From a bacterium (GTDB taxonomy: Bacteria; DRYD01): a stretch of 64,000 nucleotides of DNA. Positions within the stretch are counted from its first letter, which is position 1. Every line of letters starts with the position of its first letter. A model generated the notes under the pieces. It did no database searches. It had not been told where the DNA came from and saw only the letters and a program-made list of their open reading frames with translations. The stretch is from contig JAUQQQ010000002.1 in NCBI GenBank assembly GCA_030549815.1, positions 111,232-175,231 on the forward strand, read 5' to 3'. Positions 17,089-24,398 of this stretch are shown here, in pieces. The translations under genes and the position numbers were made by a program.

Positions 17089-18517
17089 CTACTACTCTTA
17101 TTTTTCTTTCTTTCAAATTGTATATTCCTGTTATTTTGGTTCCATATTCTATTTCACATAGGATATAATCAGCAATTTGCTTAGTTATTCTTTCACCCGG
17201 TATAATGATAGGTATTCCAGGGGGATAGGTAGTAATCAATTCCGTAGATATTTTTCCGACGCTATCCTTTATACTTATTTCCCTTGATTTAGCAGTATAT
17301 GCTTCTCTTGGTGAGATGACTAATTCAGGCCAATCAGGATACTCCGTTAATTTCCTTAATACACTATTGGGCTTAATATCACCATTCTTAACTTTTTTTA
17401 TTATGTCTTTAATTGCTTTTACAAATCTTTTTAAATCTCTTTTTCTGTCTCCCACAGTAACAAGAATGAGGATGTTAAACAAATCTGAAAGTTCTACTTG
17501 TATATTATAGGAATTTAGTAAAATTTTCTCCACTTCATAACCTGATAACCCATACTTTGATAAATTAACAACAACTTTTGTTATGTCATGATTATCCAAT
17601 AATATTTCTGTATCTACTTTTTCTAGCTCTTTTCTTACAAAGATAGAATTATCAAAAACTCTTTCAAAAATTTCTTTTTTGTTGTTTAGTATATATTGTG
17701 TGTAATCGAGAGAAATGAAGAAGAACGGAGAAGGGCTTGTCGAATTCAACATCAAAACTGTCTGATGTATTTTGGGAATCAAATCAGGAAATTTTTCTAC
17801 TAAAGTATTGTTTAAATGTAAAACAGAAGCTTGAGTAAACGCAAATAATGTTTTATGAGGACTCATTATAATAATGTGAGATTTAGTAGAGGTAGAGCAA
17901 AGAGGAAATTGAGGGTGGAACTTAAAGTGGGATCCCCATGCTTGATCAACGATCAAAAGAATACCCCTTTGATCCAAATAATCCGCTATTTTTTCTATAT
18001 TATTTACCAAACCATAATAAGTTGGATACCCTATTACAACAGCCGAAATATCCTCTTTTTCAACTAAAGCTTTTACTTCCTCAAATTCGACGTTATAATC
18101 GACATTAAATTTATAATCATACTTTGGGTAAACAAATAGAGGTGTAGAACCCGATAAGATTACTGCAGAAAAAACAGATTTATGTGAATTCCTTGGAATT
18201 AAAATTTTTTTTCCTTCCGAAATAGAACTTATTATGGCAATATGATTAGAAATAGTAGATCCCCCAACGATATAATAAGTTTTATTAACGCCATAAGCTT
18301 TAGCCATCAACTCTTGTGAATTTTTCAAAGATTTTTGAGGATTCTGAAAAGTATCAATTAAGCCTATCTCATTAGTATCAAGTATAAACAAATTTTTTTT
18401 CAAAAAATCTTTAAAATTTTTATCAAAAGCTTTCCCAGCTTTGTGCCCAGGACATTGAAACGGCAAAACTCTCCTACCCACATATTCCATTAAACTATTG
18501 ATATATGGTGTATTCAT
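17081..18517 (-). CDS. Orn/Lys/Arg decarboxylase-family PLP enzyme (arginine decarboxylase-like)
   Basis: PLP-lysine motif SPHKTL. 478 aa. Overlaps the photolyase gene by 8 nt. Confidence 0.75.
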   Translation of the reverse strand: MNTPYINSLMEYVGRRVLPFQCPGHKAGKAFDKNFKDFLKKNLFILDTNEIGLIDTFQNPQKSLKNSQELMAKAYGVNKTYYIVGGSTISNHIAIISSISEGKKILIPRNSHKSVFSAVILSGSTPLFVYPKYDYKFNVDYNVEFEEVKALVEKEDISAVVIGYPTYYGLVNNIEKIADYLDQRGILLIVDQAWGSHFKFHPQFPLCSTSTKSHIIIMSPHKTLFAFTQASVLHLNNTLVEKFPDLIPKIHQTVLMLNSTSPSPFFFISLDYTQYILNNKKEIFERVFDNSIFVRKELEKVDTEILLDNHDITKVVVNLSKYGLSGYEVEKILLNSYNIQVELSDLFNILILVTVGDRKRDLKRFVKAIKDIIKKVKNGDIKPNSVLRKLTEYPDWPELVISPREAYTAKSREISIKDSVGKISTELITTYPPGIPIIIPGERITKQIADYILCEIEYGTKITGIYNLKERKIRVVDE

Positions 18518-19305
18518 AATTTCTTTCTATACTCAACTGAATACAGAACTAACGGCTCAGGTGGTGCTAAAAACTTACCTTTTGAAGGACACGGTTGAGC
18601 AAAAGTATCCTCTATATAATTCAAATCTACTTTATCTTCAAGAAAAGCTAAAAACATACCAACAATCTTTCTAATCATATTTCTTAAAAAATATGGAGCA
18701 GTAAAAGTTAAAGTTAATACAAAAAATTCAGGAAAATCGTAAATATCAAAAGAAGTAGTAAGATCGATGACAGTATTTTTACGAACATCTTTATCAGGTT
18801 TATAATAGCTTGAATAGTCCTTTTTACCATTAAATAAATCAATAAATTTATCTAATCTTTCAAAAAGAAAATCTTTATTAATTTTTTTTAGTATTAAAAC
18901 ATTAACAAGGTTGTATTTTTTTATAATTTCTTCATCTTCAACAAAAGCAATTTTATAGACATAATTTTTTTGTATAGCATCAAATCTGGCACTAAATGTA
19001 TTATCAACTTTGAAAAAATCTATAATAAAAATATCATTAGGTAGATTTTTATTTAAAATAGAAATAAAAGAATTGTGATCATTTATTTTTTTTTCGATAA
19101 AAAAGTTGAAGTACTGTGTCAGAGCACTTACTCCTCTATCTGTCCTACCAGTATACGAAGATTTCAATACTTTTGTTTCTAATACTTTTTCCATTGTTTT
19201 TATTACTACCTCTTGTATTGTATTTTTGTCTTCCCTTTGTATTTGCCAACCACTATAATTTATACCACTATAACTTAGTACAATAGTGTAGTTATAAAGA
19301 TGAAT
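18514..19305 (-). CDS. truA: tRNA pseudouridine(38-40) synthase TruA, with probable non-canonical (ATT) start
   Basis: GRTDRGVSA (catalytic Asp). The conserved N-terminal block YSGINYSGWQIQ..TIQE..IKTMEKVL lies in frame upstream of the first ATG at 19194. A strong SD, AAGGAGGGG, sits 8 nt before the ATT at 19305. Confidence 0.65.
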   Translation of the reverse strand: MHLYNYTIVLSYSGINYSGWQIQREDKNTIQEVVIKTMEKVLETKVLKSSYTGRTDRGVSALTQYFNFFIEKKINDHNSFISILNKNLPNDIFIIDFFKVDNTFSARFDAIQKNYVYKIAFVEDEEIIKKYNLVNVLILKKINKDFLFERLDKFIDLFNGKKDYSSYYKPDKDVRKNTVIDLTTSFDIYDFPEFFVLTLTFTAPYFLRNMIRKIVGMFLAFLEDKVDLNYIEDTFAQPCPSKGKFLAPPEPLVLYSVEYRKKL

Positions 19306-19389: not shown

Positions 19390-20658
19390 TTATTTCTTCT
19401 CTTGATTACCTTCAGGTATAGGTACATTTTGTGGATTTTGTTGCTGCAAACTTTGTTGCTGTGGATTTTGTTGTTGGCTATATTGAGCATATGTCATGTT
19501 GAACTGTGGATTAAATTGTTGTTGTCCTTGATATGGATTATACGGTTGTTGAAAATAAGGTGGTTGTTGGAAATTTGGTTGGTAAGGTTGTTGAGGATAA
19601 GATTGCTGAGTATAAGGTTGCTGCGGATACTGTGGATACGGTTGTTGTGGATAATTTGGATAAGGTTGCTGTGGATATGAAGGGAAAGGTTGTTGTTGGT
19701 AATACGGTTGTTGATAAGGATACTGAGGGTATGGTCCAGGTCCAGGATATGGAGGTTGTTGATACATACCAAAACGTTTGAAATATTCCTCCTCAGTTAT
19801 ATACATTCCATTTAAGATATTTTGGCACTCTTGAGATTTTATCCATTCATCCAACTCTTTTACTCTATAAGGAACAAATGGATGAGTCATTTGAACCATT
19901 GCAATGTATTTATGAACAGTTTGCAAAAGATTAGTTTCATCCAATTGCCTTGCTTGCATAAGAACTTCATCAATGTTTACTTCTCCATCTGAATATTTAT
20001 GAGAATATCCTGCCAATTTAGACAAAGCTCTTAGTGCAGTATTTCTATCCTGGACAACAAGAAAACCTGCTCTATCAGCAGAGAATTCTGCCATTCTACT
20101 CCAATGTAATAAACCCAATTGCAAAGATAATGCAGCCAATTGACCAACTCCACCTAAAACAGCAGTTATTACACCTACCCCAAGGCTACCTAAAATATAA
20201 GCAATAGTCTTATTCAACATATGATCAAATTTATTGTGTCCTAATTCATGACCTATAACAAAAATTAATTCTTCTTCTGTAAGGATTTCTGTAAGGCCGC
20301 TTGTAACAACAACAAATTTTCTATCCATTCCCATTGCAAAAGCATTAGGAACCTCTGCAGTTTGAAGGAAAAATTCAGGTTCATAAGGTAAATCCAAAAT
20401 TTCTATTGCTTCTCTATAAACTTTGTAAAGCCTTGAATATTGATTAGGAGTAACTCTTAAAGCTTGCCCAGTAAAGATAACATACAGTGCTTCTTCACTA
20501 AATATCTTATTCAATATTTTAAATAACTGTGGTAGAAGTGGTATTTTCTTTAACCCCTCTGTAGCGACAGAATCAAATTTATGTTGAATAGCTTTGAGAG
20601 ATATTCCTGGAAACTTTAGTTTACCACTATCAGTCTTAGGCAAAGTAGTAGCTTGCAT
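19390..20658 (-). CDS. M48-family zinc metalloprotease (HtpX/Ste24-like) with a Q/P/Y-rich low-complexity C-terminal tail
   Basis: HELGHNKFDH (HExxH). The C-terminal ~115 aa consist of PQQPYP/YPQQPY-type repeats. Confidence 0.75.
   Translation of the reverse strand: MQATTLPKTDSGKLKFPGISLKAIQHKFDSVATEGLKKIPLLPQLFKILNKIFSEEALYVIFTGQALRVTPNQYSRLYKVYREAIEILDLPYEPEFFLQTAEVPNAFAMGMDRKFVVVTSGLTEILTEEELIFVIGHELGHNKFDHMLNKTIAYILGSLGVGVITAVLGGVGQLAALSLQLGLLHWSRMAEFSADRAGFLVVQDRNTALRALSKLAGYSHKYSDGEVNIDEVLMQARQLDETNLLQTVHKYIAMVQMTHPFVPYRVKELDEWIKSQECQNILNGMYITEEEYFKRFGMYQQPPYPGPGPYPQYPYQQPYYQQQPFPSYPQQPYPNYPQQPYPQYPQQPYTQQSYPQQPYQPNFQQPPYFQQPYNPYQGQQQFNPQFNMTYAQYSQQQNPQQQSLQQQNPQNVPIPEGNQEKK
19400..19750 (-). 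repeat. imperfect in-frame tandem repeats encoding the Q/P/Y-rich tail
   Basis: Repeated GGTTGTTG/GGATA(T/C)GG units on the plus strand generate spurious overlapping ORFs on both strands (19402-19781). Confidence 0.7.
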
Positions 20659-20664
20659 TCTGCT

Positions 20665-21909
20665 TCACCTCCTTATAAGGGATAGAACTTTATTGACTTT
20701 TTCAACAAAAACATCCAGAATAGCTTGGCTATGAGAGTAATTAATATAGTTAGGCTCAACAGGATGAGGAGCTAATACGATACCTTCACTTAGCAAAGCT
20801 TTATAAAAATCTATAAAAGAAATTATGTCCATATTACCAAGATTTTCCAAGCTTTCTATCCTATCATTAGAAAAATAAAAACAAAACATGCCATTTGTAT
20901 GGTTTATTTTTAAGTAATCATCTTTTACATTCCTAACTATAAAATCAACCTTACTTTTGATAATATTATAAAAATCGGGTATAGACTTAATTATTGATAA
21001 TACCTTGTATCCAGTAAAAACTGATATAGGATGCCCTGCAAAAACACCACTGTGCGACATATTTCCAATCGGTGCCATAACTTCCATATATTCTTTACTT
21101 GATACTATTGCTCCAATAGGGAATCCTCCACCTATAACTTTTCCTATAACCGTTATATCAGGTTTTATATTTCTCCCTAATCCTTCAAAACTTTCTCTAA
21201 AACATGTCGATACTTCATCAAATATTAATAAACATCCAAATTTTTTTGTTAATTCTCTTAATTTATTTAAAAATTTATCAGTTGCCTTTATGAGTAAATT
21301 AGAAGTTTGTATAGGTTCAACGATAACTGCAGCTATTTCCTTTCCATAATTACTAAAAAATTCTTCAATTACTTCCACATCGTTATAAGGTAAGCTAACC
21401 GTATCCTTAATTAATCTCTTTGGAATTCCGCTGGATGAAGATATTTGATTACCAAATTCATTGGATCCCGATTCAACTAATAAGTAATCTATACTACCAT
21501 GATAACCCCCGTCAAATTTAACTATTTTCGACCTTCCTGTAATAGCTTTTGCTAACCTAAGTGCGATAGTATTTGCTTCTGTTCCACTGTTAACAAACCG
21601 TAGCATTTGATGATAAGGATAAGCTTCGATTATTATTTCAGCCAACAAATATTCATATTCAGTTGATAATCCACTATATATACCCTCATTAATTTTTTCC
21701 TTTAATTCATCTATTAATTCAGGATAAGCATCACCAAGTATGATTGATCCCCATCCTGAAATAAAACTAATGTAACTTCTGCCTTCTGTATCGGTTATAT
21801 AAGGACCAACTGACTTTTTAATGTATAGAGGTTTTATATCGATCAATGGGAAAGCTCTAATTGGAGCATTAACTCCACCAACTAAATATTTTTTGGCTTT
21901 TTCATACAT
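20665..21909 (-). CDS. hemL: glutamate-1-semialdehyde 2,1-aminomutase HemL
   Basis: LVGGVNAPIRAF N-terminus and aminotransferase class III features. The start is trimmed to the MYEKAKKY Met because the longer ORF (to 21945) runs into the tRNA-Leu gene. Confidence 0.85.
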   Translation of the reverse strand: MYEKAKKYLVGGVNAPIRAFPLIDIKPLYIKKSVGPYITDTEGRSYISFISGWGSIILGDAYPELIDELKEKINEGIYSGLSTEYEYLLAEIIIEAYPYHQMLRFVNSGTEANTIALRLAKAITGRSKIVKFDGGYHGSIDYLLVESGSNEFGNQISSSSGIPKRLIKDTVSLPYNDVEVIEEFFSNYGKEIAAVIVEPIQTSNLLIKATDKFLNKLRELTKKFGCLLIFDEVSTCFRESFEGLGRNIKPDITVIGKVIGGGFPIGAIVSSKEYMEVMAPIGNMSHSGVFAGHPISVFTGYKVLSIIKSIPDFYNIIKSKVDFIVRNVKDDYLKINHTNGMFCFYFSNDRIESLENLGNMDIISFIDFYKALLSEGIVLAPHPVEPNYINYSHSQAILDVFVEKVNKVLSLIRR

Positions 21910-21915
21910 AATTAT

Positions 21916-22002
21916 TGGTGCGGGTGGTGGGACTCGAACCCACACGCCCTGACGGGCACTACCCCCTCAAGATAGCGCGTCTACCAGTTCCGCCACACCC
22001 GC
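21916..22002 (-). tRNA. tRNA-Leu (anticodon GAG), 87 nt, CCA encoded
   Basis: GCGGGTGTGGCGGAACTGGTAGACGCGCTATCTTGAGGGGGTAGTGCCCGTCAGGGCGTGTGGGTTCGAGTCCCACCACCCGCACCA. It has a 7 bp acceptor stem, a long variable arm and an anticodon loop TTGAGGG. Confidence 0.85.
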
Positions 22003-22014
22003 TTTATACCTTCC

Positions 22015-22281
22015 TTAATCGTTTATCGTTTTCACAATAAATTTTATAGCTGTCCTAACTTCCCCATTTATCTGGACTTCTGTAAAAGCAGGGATAGTAA
22101 CTAATTCATAACCCAAAGGAGCAACATATCCTCTTGCTATAGCAATTGCTTTCACTGCCTGATTTATAGCTCCAGCACCAATAGCTTGAACTTCTGCTTT
22201 ATTACCCTGTTTTATAACCGCAGCCAAAGCAGCAGCCACAGATTGAGGTTTAGATTTTGATGAAACCTTTAATACTTCCAT
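22015..22281 (-). CDS. spoVS: SpoVS-family protein
   Basis: MEVLKVSSKSKPQSVAAALAAV..IGAGAINQAVKAIAIARGYVAP is near-identical in pattern to the SpoVS family. 88 aa. Confidence 0.8.
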   Translation of the reverse strand: MEVLKVSSKSKPQSVAAALAAVIKQGNKAEVQAIGAGAINQAVKAIAIARGYVAPLGYELVTIPAFTEVQINGEVRTAIKFIVKTIND

Positions 22282-22331: not shown

Positions 22332-24398
22332 CTATATAGTTCCCTTCAGTATTATATTTTCCTGTAAGTTCTGTGGTACCTCTTTATAAGTATATAATTC
22401 CATACTAAAAGTTCCTCTTCCTTGTGTAATAGACCTTAAAACAGTACTGTATCCAAATATTTCTCTTAATGGTACCAATGCTAAAATTTTATTTATTACA
22501 TTATTACCCAACGATTGATATATTGATATTTCCTCTATTTCCCCATTTCTTGCATTGATATCATTTATAACATTACCCAAATATTCTTCAGGAACAATTA
22601 TTTCTAACTTCATAACGGGCTCAAGTAGGATGGGTTGAGCGTTAGATAAAGCTAATTTAGTTGCTTCAAAAGCAGCAACTTTAAAAGCTAAAGGAGTTGA
22701 AAAATCTTTATCGTATTTGCCATCAATAACTCTAACTTTAACTTTGCTACAGGGGAAACCTGCAAGAACTCCAAAAGCCAATGCTTCCACTATACCCTCT
22801 TTTACAAATGGAACGATTTTATCAGGAATTTGATCCGTATCCACAAAAACCTTTATACCTTCATCAATAGGCATTACTTCAAGTTTTACATAAGCTGTTT
22901 GCAATTTATTACCAACTTGTTTTTGGAAATCATACTCCTCTACTGCTTTTTTAGTAATACTTTCCCTAAATTCCACTTGAGGTTTGCCAGAATGTATTTT
23001 TAAATTATAATCCCTTTGTATTCTATCCTTAATAATGTCAAGATGTAATTCTCCCATCCCATAGATAATTATCTGTCCTGTTTCTTCATTTATTTTATAC
23101 TTAAAAGTTGGGTCTTCTTCAGACAATCTTTCAAGTGCTTTAAATAATTTATCTTCATCTGCCCTTGAATAAGCTTCTATAGAAGCGAATATCACCGGTT
23201 CCGGTACAAAAATAGATTCAAGGAAAAGATTTTTTTCCTCATCCAGCAATGTATCACCCGTAGCCGTTTTTTTCAAACCCAATATAGCTCCTATCTCTCC
23301 CATTTTCAATTCCTTAATTTCTTCAATATAGCTTGCGTGCAACTTTATTATCCTATTTGCTCTTTCTTTGATGTTCTTAGTTGAATTATACAAAACATCG
23401 TTTTCCTTTATACTTCCACTGTAAACTCTTACAAAAGAAACTTTACCTATAGAAGGGAAATAAGATATCTTAAAACATAAGGCTAATAATTTATCTGAAT
23501 TTTCTAAAGTATTAACATAAATTTCTTTTTCTAAACCATTTTCAATATAAAAAGCTTTTTGTAAAAATCGATCCTTAGGTGAAGGTAAATAAAGTATGGC
23601 AGCATCAAGTAATAACTGAATACCAATGTTTTTGATAGCACTTCCACACAAAACAGGACTACCAAGATTATTAAGAGTTATCCTCCTTAAAGCATTATTT
23701 ATATCATCAACAGTATACTCGGAATTAAGGTATTTTTCCATAAATTCCTCATCCAATGAAGCAATCTCTTCCAACATGTAGATTCTATCTTTTTCATATG
23801 TAGAATGATCTATATCTTCGTAAACATACTGACTCCCGTCCTCATTAACCCATCTAACTTTTTTCATATTGATCAAATCAACAACTCCAGCAAATTCATC
23901 TTCCCTACCAATAGGAACTTGGATGGGAATAGGATTTATAAGTAATTTTTCCTTAATAGAATTAACAGAGAATTCAAAATTTGCTCCCAACTTATCCATT
24001 TTATTAACAAAGAATATTATTGGAACTTTATATTTTTGAGCTTGTCTGAAAACTGTTTCAGTTTGAGGTTGAACTCCTGCAGAAGCATCAAGTATAATTA
24101 TAATTCCATCCAGAACTCTAATGGATCTTTCAACCTCTATAGTAAAATCCACATGACCTGGTGTATCGATCAAATTAAACTCATAATCTTTCCATTTAAA
24201 GAAAGTTGCAGCACTTTGTATTGTTATACCATGCTCTTTTTCTTGGACCATATAATCCATCGTTGCAGTTCCTTCATCTACACTACCTATTCTGTAAATT
24301 CTGCCAGTATAGTATAGAATTCTTTCCGTAGTAGTAGTTTTACCAGCATCTATATGAGCAACTATTCCTATATTTCTTATTTTATCCAGATTTTTCAT
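22332..24398 (-). CDS. elongation factor G-family GTPase (EF-G paralog outside the str operon)
   Basis: [32 protein letters not shown] and NKMD. 688 aa. Confidence 0.85.

Follow-up and report, generated by a model that had tools for sequence, protein, structure and literature searches.

A proline-, glutamine- and tyrosine-rich tail on an M48 metallopeptidase from a probably thermophilic bacterium of the DRYD01 lineage

The gene and its peptidase core

The window analyzed here, a stretch of 64,000 nucleotides from contig JAUQQQ010000002.1 (positions 111,232 to 175,231, forward strand) of assembly GCA_030549815.1, derives from a bacterium of the DRYD01 lineage. It contains a gene for an M48-family metallopeptidase of 422 amino acids (aa), identical to the public protein P0125, in which a folded core is followed by a long tail composed mainly of proline, glutamine and tyrosine (P/Q/Y). 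The comparisons described below show the tail, at the level of sequence, to be real, translated, conserved, strain-stable, predicted to be disordered, enriched in short motifs and restricted to certain lineages. The features of the locus are collected in Table 1.

A normal HExxH peptidase domain had been noted in the first part of the protein by the first-pass annotation, and this is confirmed by a match of residues 75-272 to the Pfam profile PF01435 (Peptidase_M48; E = 3e-29, 102.5 bits against a cut-off of 20.3) and by the HELGH motif. In the family alignment E138 and G140 are invariant, HELGH and E191 are kept throughout, and the helix with Glu191-x3-Asp195 is present. The role of Glu191 as the third zinc ligand is presumed from what we take to be the general M48 pattern HExxH...E. 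The AlphaFold2 model, built on a 62-sequence alignment, has a predicted local distance difference test (pLDDT) score of mostly 82-98 up to about residue 300. The best Foldseek matches for the core (probability about 1.0) are ZMPSTE24, Ste24, the soluble M48 protein 3c37, BlaR1, BepA and HtpX, and a profile search of PDB sequences retrieved HtpX, Ste24 and BepA. Thus, the profile score, the HExxH motif with a downstream glutamate and the M48/gluzincin-type fold all place the protein in the M48 family.

HtpX (M48B) shares with it the fold, the HExxH motif with the downstream glutamate, and a hydrophobic hairpin directly after the HExxH helix. The window protein differs in having a P/Q/Y tail, in lacking the two N-terminal transmembrane (TM) helices TM1 and TM2, with no hydrophobic segment before residue 147, and in belonging to a separate subfamily of 292 clusters. 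The NCBIfam HtpX equivalog profiles score at most 66 bits against cut-offs of 245-422 (the best, 66.4 against 369). Such scores, far below the cut-offs, identify an M48 protein that is not an HtpX ortholog. Judged by its motifs, the protein is an active-looking M48 zinc metallopeptidase of an uncharacterized subfamily without the HtpX N-terminal TM helices. No M48 paralog was found in the window.

Table 1. Features of the M48 locus, its surroundings and two related loci (window positions unless a locus is named)
Feature	Position	Strand	Basis
M48 peptidase gene with P/Q/Y tail, 422 aa; stop codon 19390-19392	19390..20658	-	open reading frame list
Folded M48 metallopeptidase core, residues 1-297	19768..20658	-	Pfam PF01435, AlphaFold2, Foldseek
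HELGH zinc-binding/catalytic motif, residues 137-141	20236..20250	-	sequence and family alignment
Sole hydrophobic segment, residues 147-186, a hairpin of two helices lying between the HExxH and Glu helices	20101..20220	-	Kyte-Doolittle, AlphaFold2
Glu191, presumed third zinc ligand, in helix RMAEFSADR	20086..20088	-	alignment
Body of the tail (residues 298-385), dense in proline, P-Y motifs at even spacing	19504..19767	-	dN/dS, pLDDT, motif tests
Tail end, residues 386-422, Q/N-rich, fewer prolines, polar/charged tip EGNQEKK	19393..19503	-	fast-evolving, in-frame indels
Phantom reading frames from the stop-free repeat tract	19402..19781 overall: 19402-19680, 19494-19772, 19533-19781	+, -, + respectively	open reading frame list
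Shine-Dalgarno sequence GGAGGTGA (6 nt ahead of the M48 ATG; overlaps the stop codon of hemL)	20665..20672	-	read from sequence
hemL (glutamate-1-semialdehyde aminomutase), upstream, operon-like block	20665..21909	-	tblastn with L001 HemL; synteny
tRNA-Leu(GAG), directly upstream of hemL	21916-22002	-	
SpoVS-family protein, upstream of tRNA-Leu/hemL	22015-22281	-	
EF-G-like GTPase (688 aa), upstream of tRNA-Leu/hemL	22332-24398	-	
truA (pseudouridine synthase), downstream	18514..19299	-	tblastn; synteny
Clade B examples (proteins P0012-P0020, P0126-P0148)	L005:10001-11371; L013:6001-7152		

Composition and repeat structure of the tail

The tail runs from Met298 to the last residue and measures 125 aa. 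The first-pass annotation was therefore right about its composition and somewhat short on its length, which it gave as about 115 aa. Glutamine makes up 33% of the tail, proline 24% and tyrosine 16% (P+Q+Y, 73%), and with 7% asparagine the sum of Q and N reaches 40%. The other long open reading frames (ORFs) of the window, whose GC content is 29%, have 3.0% Q, 3.3% P and 4.5% Y. Even relative to the protein's own core the P+Q+Y excess has a binomial P of about 3e-54. Only four residues are charged, all at the extreme C-terminus. A proline occurs about every third residue (median gap 3), and the longest proline-free run is 14 aa. From residue 308 onward nearly all pLDDT values fall below 50 with no secondary structure, so that the disorder check proposed earlier gave a prediction of disorder; residues 334-345 are slightly higher, at 50 or above.

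The heptapeptide YPQQPYP occurs twice and YPQQPY three times. In the tail DNA, Tandem Repeats Finder detects periods of 15, 24 and 48 nt, all multiples of 3, with 72-83% matches, which agrees with the earlier description of imperfect tandem repeats. P-Y motifs are enriched beyond the amino acid composition (z = 6.3), and the intervals between aromatic residues vary less than in shuffled tails (coefficient of variation 0.35 against 0.81; 0 of 2000 shuffles as even). The phantom ORFs reported on both strands are also there: three of them, 82-92 aa long, lie wholly inside the tail-coding repeats, while selection acts in the M48 frame. Beyond the M48 tails, no other P/Q/Y-rich ORF was found in the window or in 85 further loci.

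Stability between strains and selection

The first-pass annotation had suggested that the tail might be a hypervariable, contingency-like region and had called for a comparison of its length across strains. Protein P0121, near-identical to the window protein, is encoded on 15 contigs, and eight of these loci, from separate runs or samples, were compared with the window. The 378 nt of tail and stop codon showed no difference in any of the eight independent assemblies. All six variants of the 90%-identity cluster are 422 aa long, and their tails differ only by P303S, A391T and S403N. With a 94%-identical ortholog (L001) as reference, the ratio of non-synonymous to synonymous substitution rates (dN/dS) is 0.055 for the core and 0.077 for tail residues 298-385 (16 synonymous and 7 non-synonymous changes). 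Over the final 37 residues no alignment with L001 is possible. In-frame indels distinguish the two tails, one of 6 nt near the start and two, of 9 and 3 nt, near the end. The last third thus evolves freely, and constraint does not extend over the whole tail.

Because the tail DNA is identical in eight assemblies and its dN/dS is purifying, an assembly or frame artefact and hypervariability are both ruled out in this lineage. Copy-number variation was seen only in the more distant clade B described below. The two marks of a contingency locus, near-perfect short repeats and length differences between close strains, are both missing. On this comparative evidence the annotated frame is the real one, continuous with the core and under selection.

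Tails of the closest relatives

Two clades of relatives carry similar tails. In clade A, whose members are 62-99% identical and in several cases named Candidatus Calescibacterium sp., every protein carries a P/Q/Y tail, about 95-125 aa long; taking clades A and B together (all 11 relatives of the former and about 20 of the latter) the range is 65-138 aa. Similarity between tails exceeds that of shuffled sequences by a z of only 2-4.6, against more than 130 for the cores. PY, PYP, QPY and PPY are nonetheless enriched beyond composition, with z = 4.6-6.6 in clade A and up to 14 in clade B, and 11 of 15 tails have a more regular aromatic spacing than their shuffled versions. Judging from these comparisons, conservation extends to composition, length and short motifs, and not to positional sequence.

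Clade B comes from genomes of 25% GC, with about 50% core identity, a different gene context (nusG - gene - apbA) and an additional K/E/N-rich N-terminal extension. Here REIGL stands in place of HELGH and His in place of Glu191, which leaves none of the three presumed zinc ligands; the tail persists nonetheless. By these substitutions clade B is likely a pseudo-protease. Its tail is a near-perfect (NIPYPQQ)n array, an example of which is provided by L005:11117-11342, with 10.8 copies of a 21-nt unit at 98% identity. Arrays of 7 to 14 heptads occur in proteins that share over 90% identity and have total lengths of 429-476 aa (P0018, P0126-P0144). Some gene models are broken: the tails of P0017 and P0143 are frameshifted, and P0141 stops at the tail start. 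The heptad variation could be a real polymorphism or the result of short-read mis-assembly, as the arrays reach about 290 nt. Length variation follows repeat perfection, being observed in clade B and neither in the window lineage nor in the P0014 cluster, whose five members are uniformly 443 aa long.

A third lineage is represented by P0211, a 267-aa fragment with 41% core identity, an intact HELSH motif and a Y/N/P-rich (YPN)n tail. In this tail asparagine stands in the place of glutamine and the P-Y/Y-P pairing is kept.

The C-terminus in the wider subfamily

An exhaustive HMMER search with the core yielded 292 clusters (at 50% identity) with E <= 1e-30 and 1636 with E <= 1e-10. The subfamily is spread over Chloroflexota, Armatimonadota, Cyanobacteria, Acidobacteriota, Myxococcota, Actinomycetota and some archaea. 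The C-termini were surveyed in 142 core-complete representatives clustered at 50% identity. About 49% of them (69 of 142) end in one or two Cys4 zinc ribbons (PF13240, PF12773, PF13248), 18 have no extension, and 53 carry other extensions, five of which are of low complexity. P/Q/Y-like tails are present in about 2%: besides the cluster of the window protein there are only two cases, namely a clade A fragment and P0211. The C-terminus is thus a variable accessory position, of which the P/Q/Y tail is one rare and lineage-restricted occupant. The members with zinc ribbons, which occur in Chloroflexota, Armatimonadota, Cyanobacteria, Acidobacteriota and others, share the core of about 285 aa (31-45% identity), its conserved ILxGxY end and the position of the attached module; they differ in that the module consists of Cys4 ribbons there and of a cysteine-free disordered tract here. 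A literature search found no paper linking an M48 metalloprotease with a zinc ribbon.

Several further features were seen among representatives P0149-P0297 and proteins P0022-P0120. The C-termini of many actinobacterial-looking members have a short motif in common, ...S.DPLAK..., while at the N-terminus about 27 representatives are extended by 60 to 370 residues. P0166 has GRELGH instead of HExxH.

Similar tracts on unrelated proteins

Such a tail had been called unusual for a bacterial protease. Within the M48 family it is indeed rare, as the survey above demonstrates, but similar tracts are common on unrelated bacterial proteins, so the claim was overstated. A metagenome scan for DNA encoding YPQQPYP found at least 120 loci, and 79 of the 120 listed matches lie in frame inside a P/Q/Y-rich stretch. 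According to Pfam, of nine such ORFs four combine zinc ribbons (PF13240, PF12773) with a TM segment, one of these also with DUF4190; two contain DUF3300, one a TFIIB-type zinc ribbon, and one is a PrsW-family intramembrane protease. In the last of these (L160, about 3349-3398 of contig Ga0154020_10005430) the C-terminal (QQPYP)n tail has about 120 residues, which makes it an independent example of such a tail on a membrane protease. The window tail, with its YPQQPYP-type motifs and well over 55% P+Q+Y across more than 40 residues, belongs to the same common and uncharacterized compositional class. The tracts share the exact YPQQPYP, the composition and, often, a position next to membrane spans; they differ in occurring mostly in genomes of GC 0.55-0.75 and on unrelated domains, and the likeness is one of kind, with no homology. 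A search with the tail alone gave 999 word-sharing candidates, none of which reached E <= 0.001.

The window protein thus combines two known kinds, the M48 family and the bacterial P/Q/Y low-complexity tract. What is new is the attachment of the tract to an M48 core and its upkeep in a genome of 29% GC. The ribbon families found at the C-terminus of M48 relatives also adjoin YPQQPYP tracts beside TM helices elsewhere; this coincidence, a correlation only, may be meaningful. Another recurrent arrangement was noted in three unrelated samples, where small TFIIB-type zinc-ribbon proteins (L130, L164 and L186; CPVC...CPNCKGVWLDRGELDKL) carry the P/Q/Y tract centrally and end in a conserved basic/acidic C-terminus, KKKKSVLDxLGDLFD, forming one architecture.

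Membrane topology

Neither a signal peptide nor an N-terminal TM helix was found in the 422-aa protein, and its sole hydrophobic segment is the internal hairpin. The highest Kyte-Doolittle value over 19 residues within it is 1.91, and AlphaFold2 places helices at residues 146-168 and 170-202. The hairpin is a possible membrane anchor, insertion being a matter of prediction; because it is less hydrophobic in distant relatives, membrane association is uncertain. A single internal two-helix hairpin would leave both termini, and hence the tail, on one side, by our reading the cytoplasm. The tail is presumably cytoplasmic and, if the hairpin anchors the protein, near the membrane.

Genomic context and habitat

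The M48 gene lies between hemL and truA, and this order is kept in Calescibacterium-type relatives; in one of them (L003) the genes overlap or abut. The neighborhood is of a housekeeping kind and gives no clue to the function. A scan for promoters and terminators produced matches at background level only. For hemL the true start codon is the ATG at 21909; the GTG listed as its start (21945) falls inside the tRNA-Leu gene and is therefore spurious. The same tRNA gene explains the local GC peak of 0.45. The EF-G-like GTPase and SpoVS-family genes follow in the same order on the L003 Calescibacterium contig. The truA frame continues past its listed ATG (19194) to at least 19299, matching orthologs of 265 aa; truA probably uses a non-ATG start, and the 217-aa products called publicly for this species are likely too short.

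The source organism is likely thermophilic. Window composition gives a growth temperature of about 60 C, a rough value from a formula applied to stop-to-stop ORFs. Calescamantes populations live in springs at about 80 C (PMC4791363).

Proposed function and its alternatives

The reading we favor, tentatively and with somewhat less than even confidence, is that the tail may serve as a cytoplasmic module for multivalent interaction or clustering, independent of catalysis. Short repeats would have expanded in frame to produce the tail and later degenerated. Selection would since have maintained its composition, its length of about 95-125 aa and a dense, even array of about 10-15 P-Y motifs (QPY/PYP/PPY), giving a flexible, polyproline-II-like, uncharged chain. 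Its aromatic residues would make many weak contacts and so cluster the protein or recruit partners or substrates, and the tail would thereby do the targeting job of the zinc ribbons found in the rest of the family. A role independent of catalysis is suggested because clade B retains the tail without the zinc ligands.

Analogies can be found in several systems. E. coli SSB (with its intrinsically disordered linker), ZipA (P/Q domain) and the FtsK linkers are likewise bacterial, uncharged, flexible and rich in proline and glutamine; a literature search on the ZipA and FtsK linkers yielded nothing relevant. All of these are, however, tyrosine-poor linkers between folded or peptide modules, whereas the tract described here ends the protein, and aromatic residues make up about 20% of it. 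With the eukaryotic tyrosine-rich prion-like domains of the FUS type the tail shares a Q-rich, polar and uncharged background in which aromatic residues recur at even intervals. The cereal prolamin repeats of gliadins and hordeins (PQQPFPQQPYPQ) have almost the same motifs as the tail. Its 24% proline brings the tail nearer to the prolamins than to prion-like domains prone to form amyloid, the likeness being convergent and without homology. The SSB linker is reported to contribute to phase separation (PMC7584906). The even aromatic residues of the tail in an uncharged polar spacer correspond to a sticker-and-spacer arrangement, although repeat origin could give the same pattern; phase separation, which the first-pass annotation had raised, would be compatible with this spacing.

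Several observations weigh against a function in interaction or clustering. Even aromatic spacing and motif enrichment are also expected from tandem-repeat origin alone. The last third of the tail evolves without evident constraint, and the hairpin is weaker in distant relatives, with Kyte-Doolittle values of 1.4-1.65. Clade B genomes may still hold an active paralog. Finally, correction for composition removes all matches of the tail alone, and so no functional link is provided by homology.

An alternative that is unlikely but has substance is that of a passive entropic spacer or solubility bristle, making no specific contacts and affecting solubility, distance from the membrane or steric gating of the active site. 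It would suit an uncharged, proline-dense, predicted-disordered tail of which only composition and length are conserved and the last third is free to evolve. For a bristle, however, one would expect charged or polar residues and not 20% aromatic ones; in addition, two clades with about 50% core identity both show more P-Y motifs than their composition predicts, and residues 298-385 are under purifying selection at short range. If the tail were instead a tolerated by-product of replication slippage, its repeat origin, the recent expansion in clade B (98%-identical 21-nt units with copy-number variation) and the fast divergence of its end would all be natural. This neutral scenario is quite improbable in view of the persistence of P/Q/Y tails over clades A and B and of a Y/N/P tail in the third lineage, the dN/dS of 0.077, the length kept within about 65-138 aa, and a composition that opposes the 29% GC and the background of 3% Q and 3% P. 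A contingency locus or an assembly artefact, to which the repetitive DNA, the 7-14 heptads of clade B and its few frameshifted or truncated gene models (P0017, P0143, P0141) might point, is hardly credible for the window lineage, where the repeats are only 72-83% matched with periods in multiples of 3, none of 378 nt differs in eight assemblies, the cluster is uniformly 422 aa long and selection is purifying.

Other scenarios assign the tail a different activity or location. As an autoinhibitory pseudo-substrate or propeptide it would occupy the cleft in cis or in trans and be removed by self-cleavage on activation. HtpX and OMA1 do self-cleave, the fold matches include projannalysin (4jix), which we take to be a zymogen of the related minigluzincin family whose C-terminal segment blocks the cleft, and pLDDT is at least 50 at residues 334-345. 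That rise is marginal, though, inhibition needs neither 125 aa nor 10-15 repeated motifs, proline-rich sequences are poor substrates for most metalloproteases, and clade B, without the three zinc ligands, keeps and even expands the tail; autoinhibition is improbable. The label prion-like, used in the first-pass annotation, was correct insofar as the region is long, disordered and Q/N-rich (40% Q+N and 16% Y over 125 residues); low proline content and conserved aggregation propensity are not found. A switch domain of the prion or amyloid type is very improbable: proline occurs about every three residues, the 14-aa proline-free run lacks conservation already in the 94%-identical relative, and on a simplified scale of the prion aggregation prediction algorithm PAPA the tail averages -0.12, with maxima between -0.13 and 0.09 among the relatives. 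One 41-residue window (roughly 367-407) does reach 0.086, and values above 0.05 are confined to the non-conserved last third of the tail. Surveys list prion-like candidates among bacterial peptidases; two surveys of bacterial prion-like proteins make no mention of M48 or HtpX. Anchoring in the envelope, also proposed earlier, deserves next to no credence. Some P/Q/Y tracts elsewhere do follow signal peptides, as in DUF3300 proteins, but this protein has neither a signal peptide nor an N-terminal TM helix, the hairpin keeps the two termini together on what is presumably the cytoplasmic side, a 145-residue N-terminal domain is unlikely to be exported without a signal sequence, and M48B active sites face the cytoplasm.

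A bolder extension of the clustering scenario, which we regard as rather doubtful, would make the tail a heat-stable and possibly temperature-responsive sticker-and-spacer module that reversibly clusters an HtpX-like scaffold in a condensate or surface assembly of a thermophile. Its function would be distinct enough from proteolysis for clade B to have kept scaffold and tail alone, as a pseudo-protease that tunes it by heptad number, and 'PQQPY' tracts near zinc ribbons or TM helices would be a general module for membrane-proximal self-association or recruitment. A separate lead, and no more than a lead, comes from PGM48 (AT3G27110), which presumably has no TM helices and a mature length of about 290 aa. 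Many cyanobacterial proteins are homologous to the window core. PGM48 and Synechocystis sll1280 are M48 peptidases of plastoglobules and cyanoglobules, the lipid droplets of plastids and cyanobacteria (PMC12223511, PMC12587418).

Implications

If the clustering function proposed here is true, this protein would be a compact test case for bacterial P/Q/Y tracts, which are common and unstudied, as it offers a recognizable enzyme, a dead sister clade, natural copy-number variants and relatives with zinc ribbons. It is also an instance of a Q-rich region, predicted to be disordered, kept under purifying selection where a GC content of 29% and probable thermophily should disfavor it. If the repeat is merely tolerated, the tail would be an ordinary low-complexity extension; what would then matter in practice is that the three phantom ORFs are not genes and that the tract did not arise in assembly. 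The most informative by-products of the analysis are the ligand-less clade B with its variable, perfect heptads and the alternation of zinc ribbons and P/Q/Y tails at one position of the M48 subfamily.

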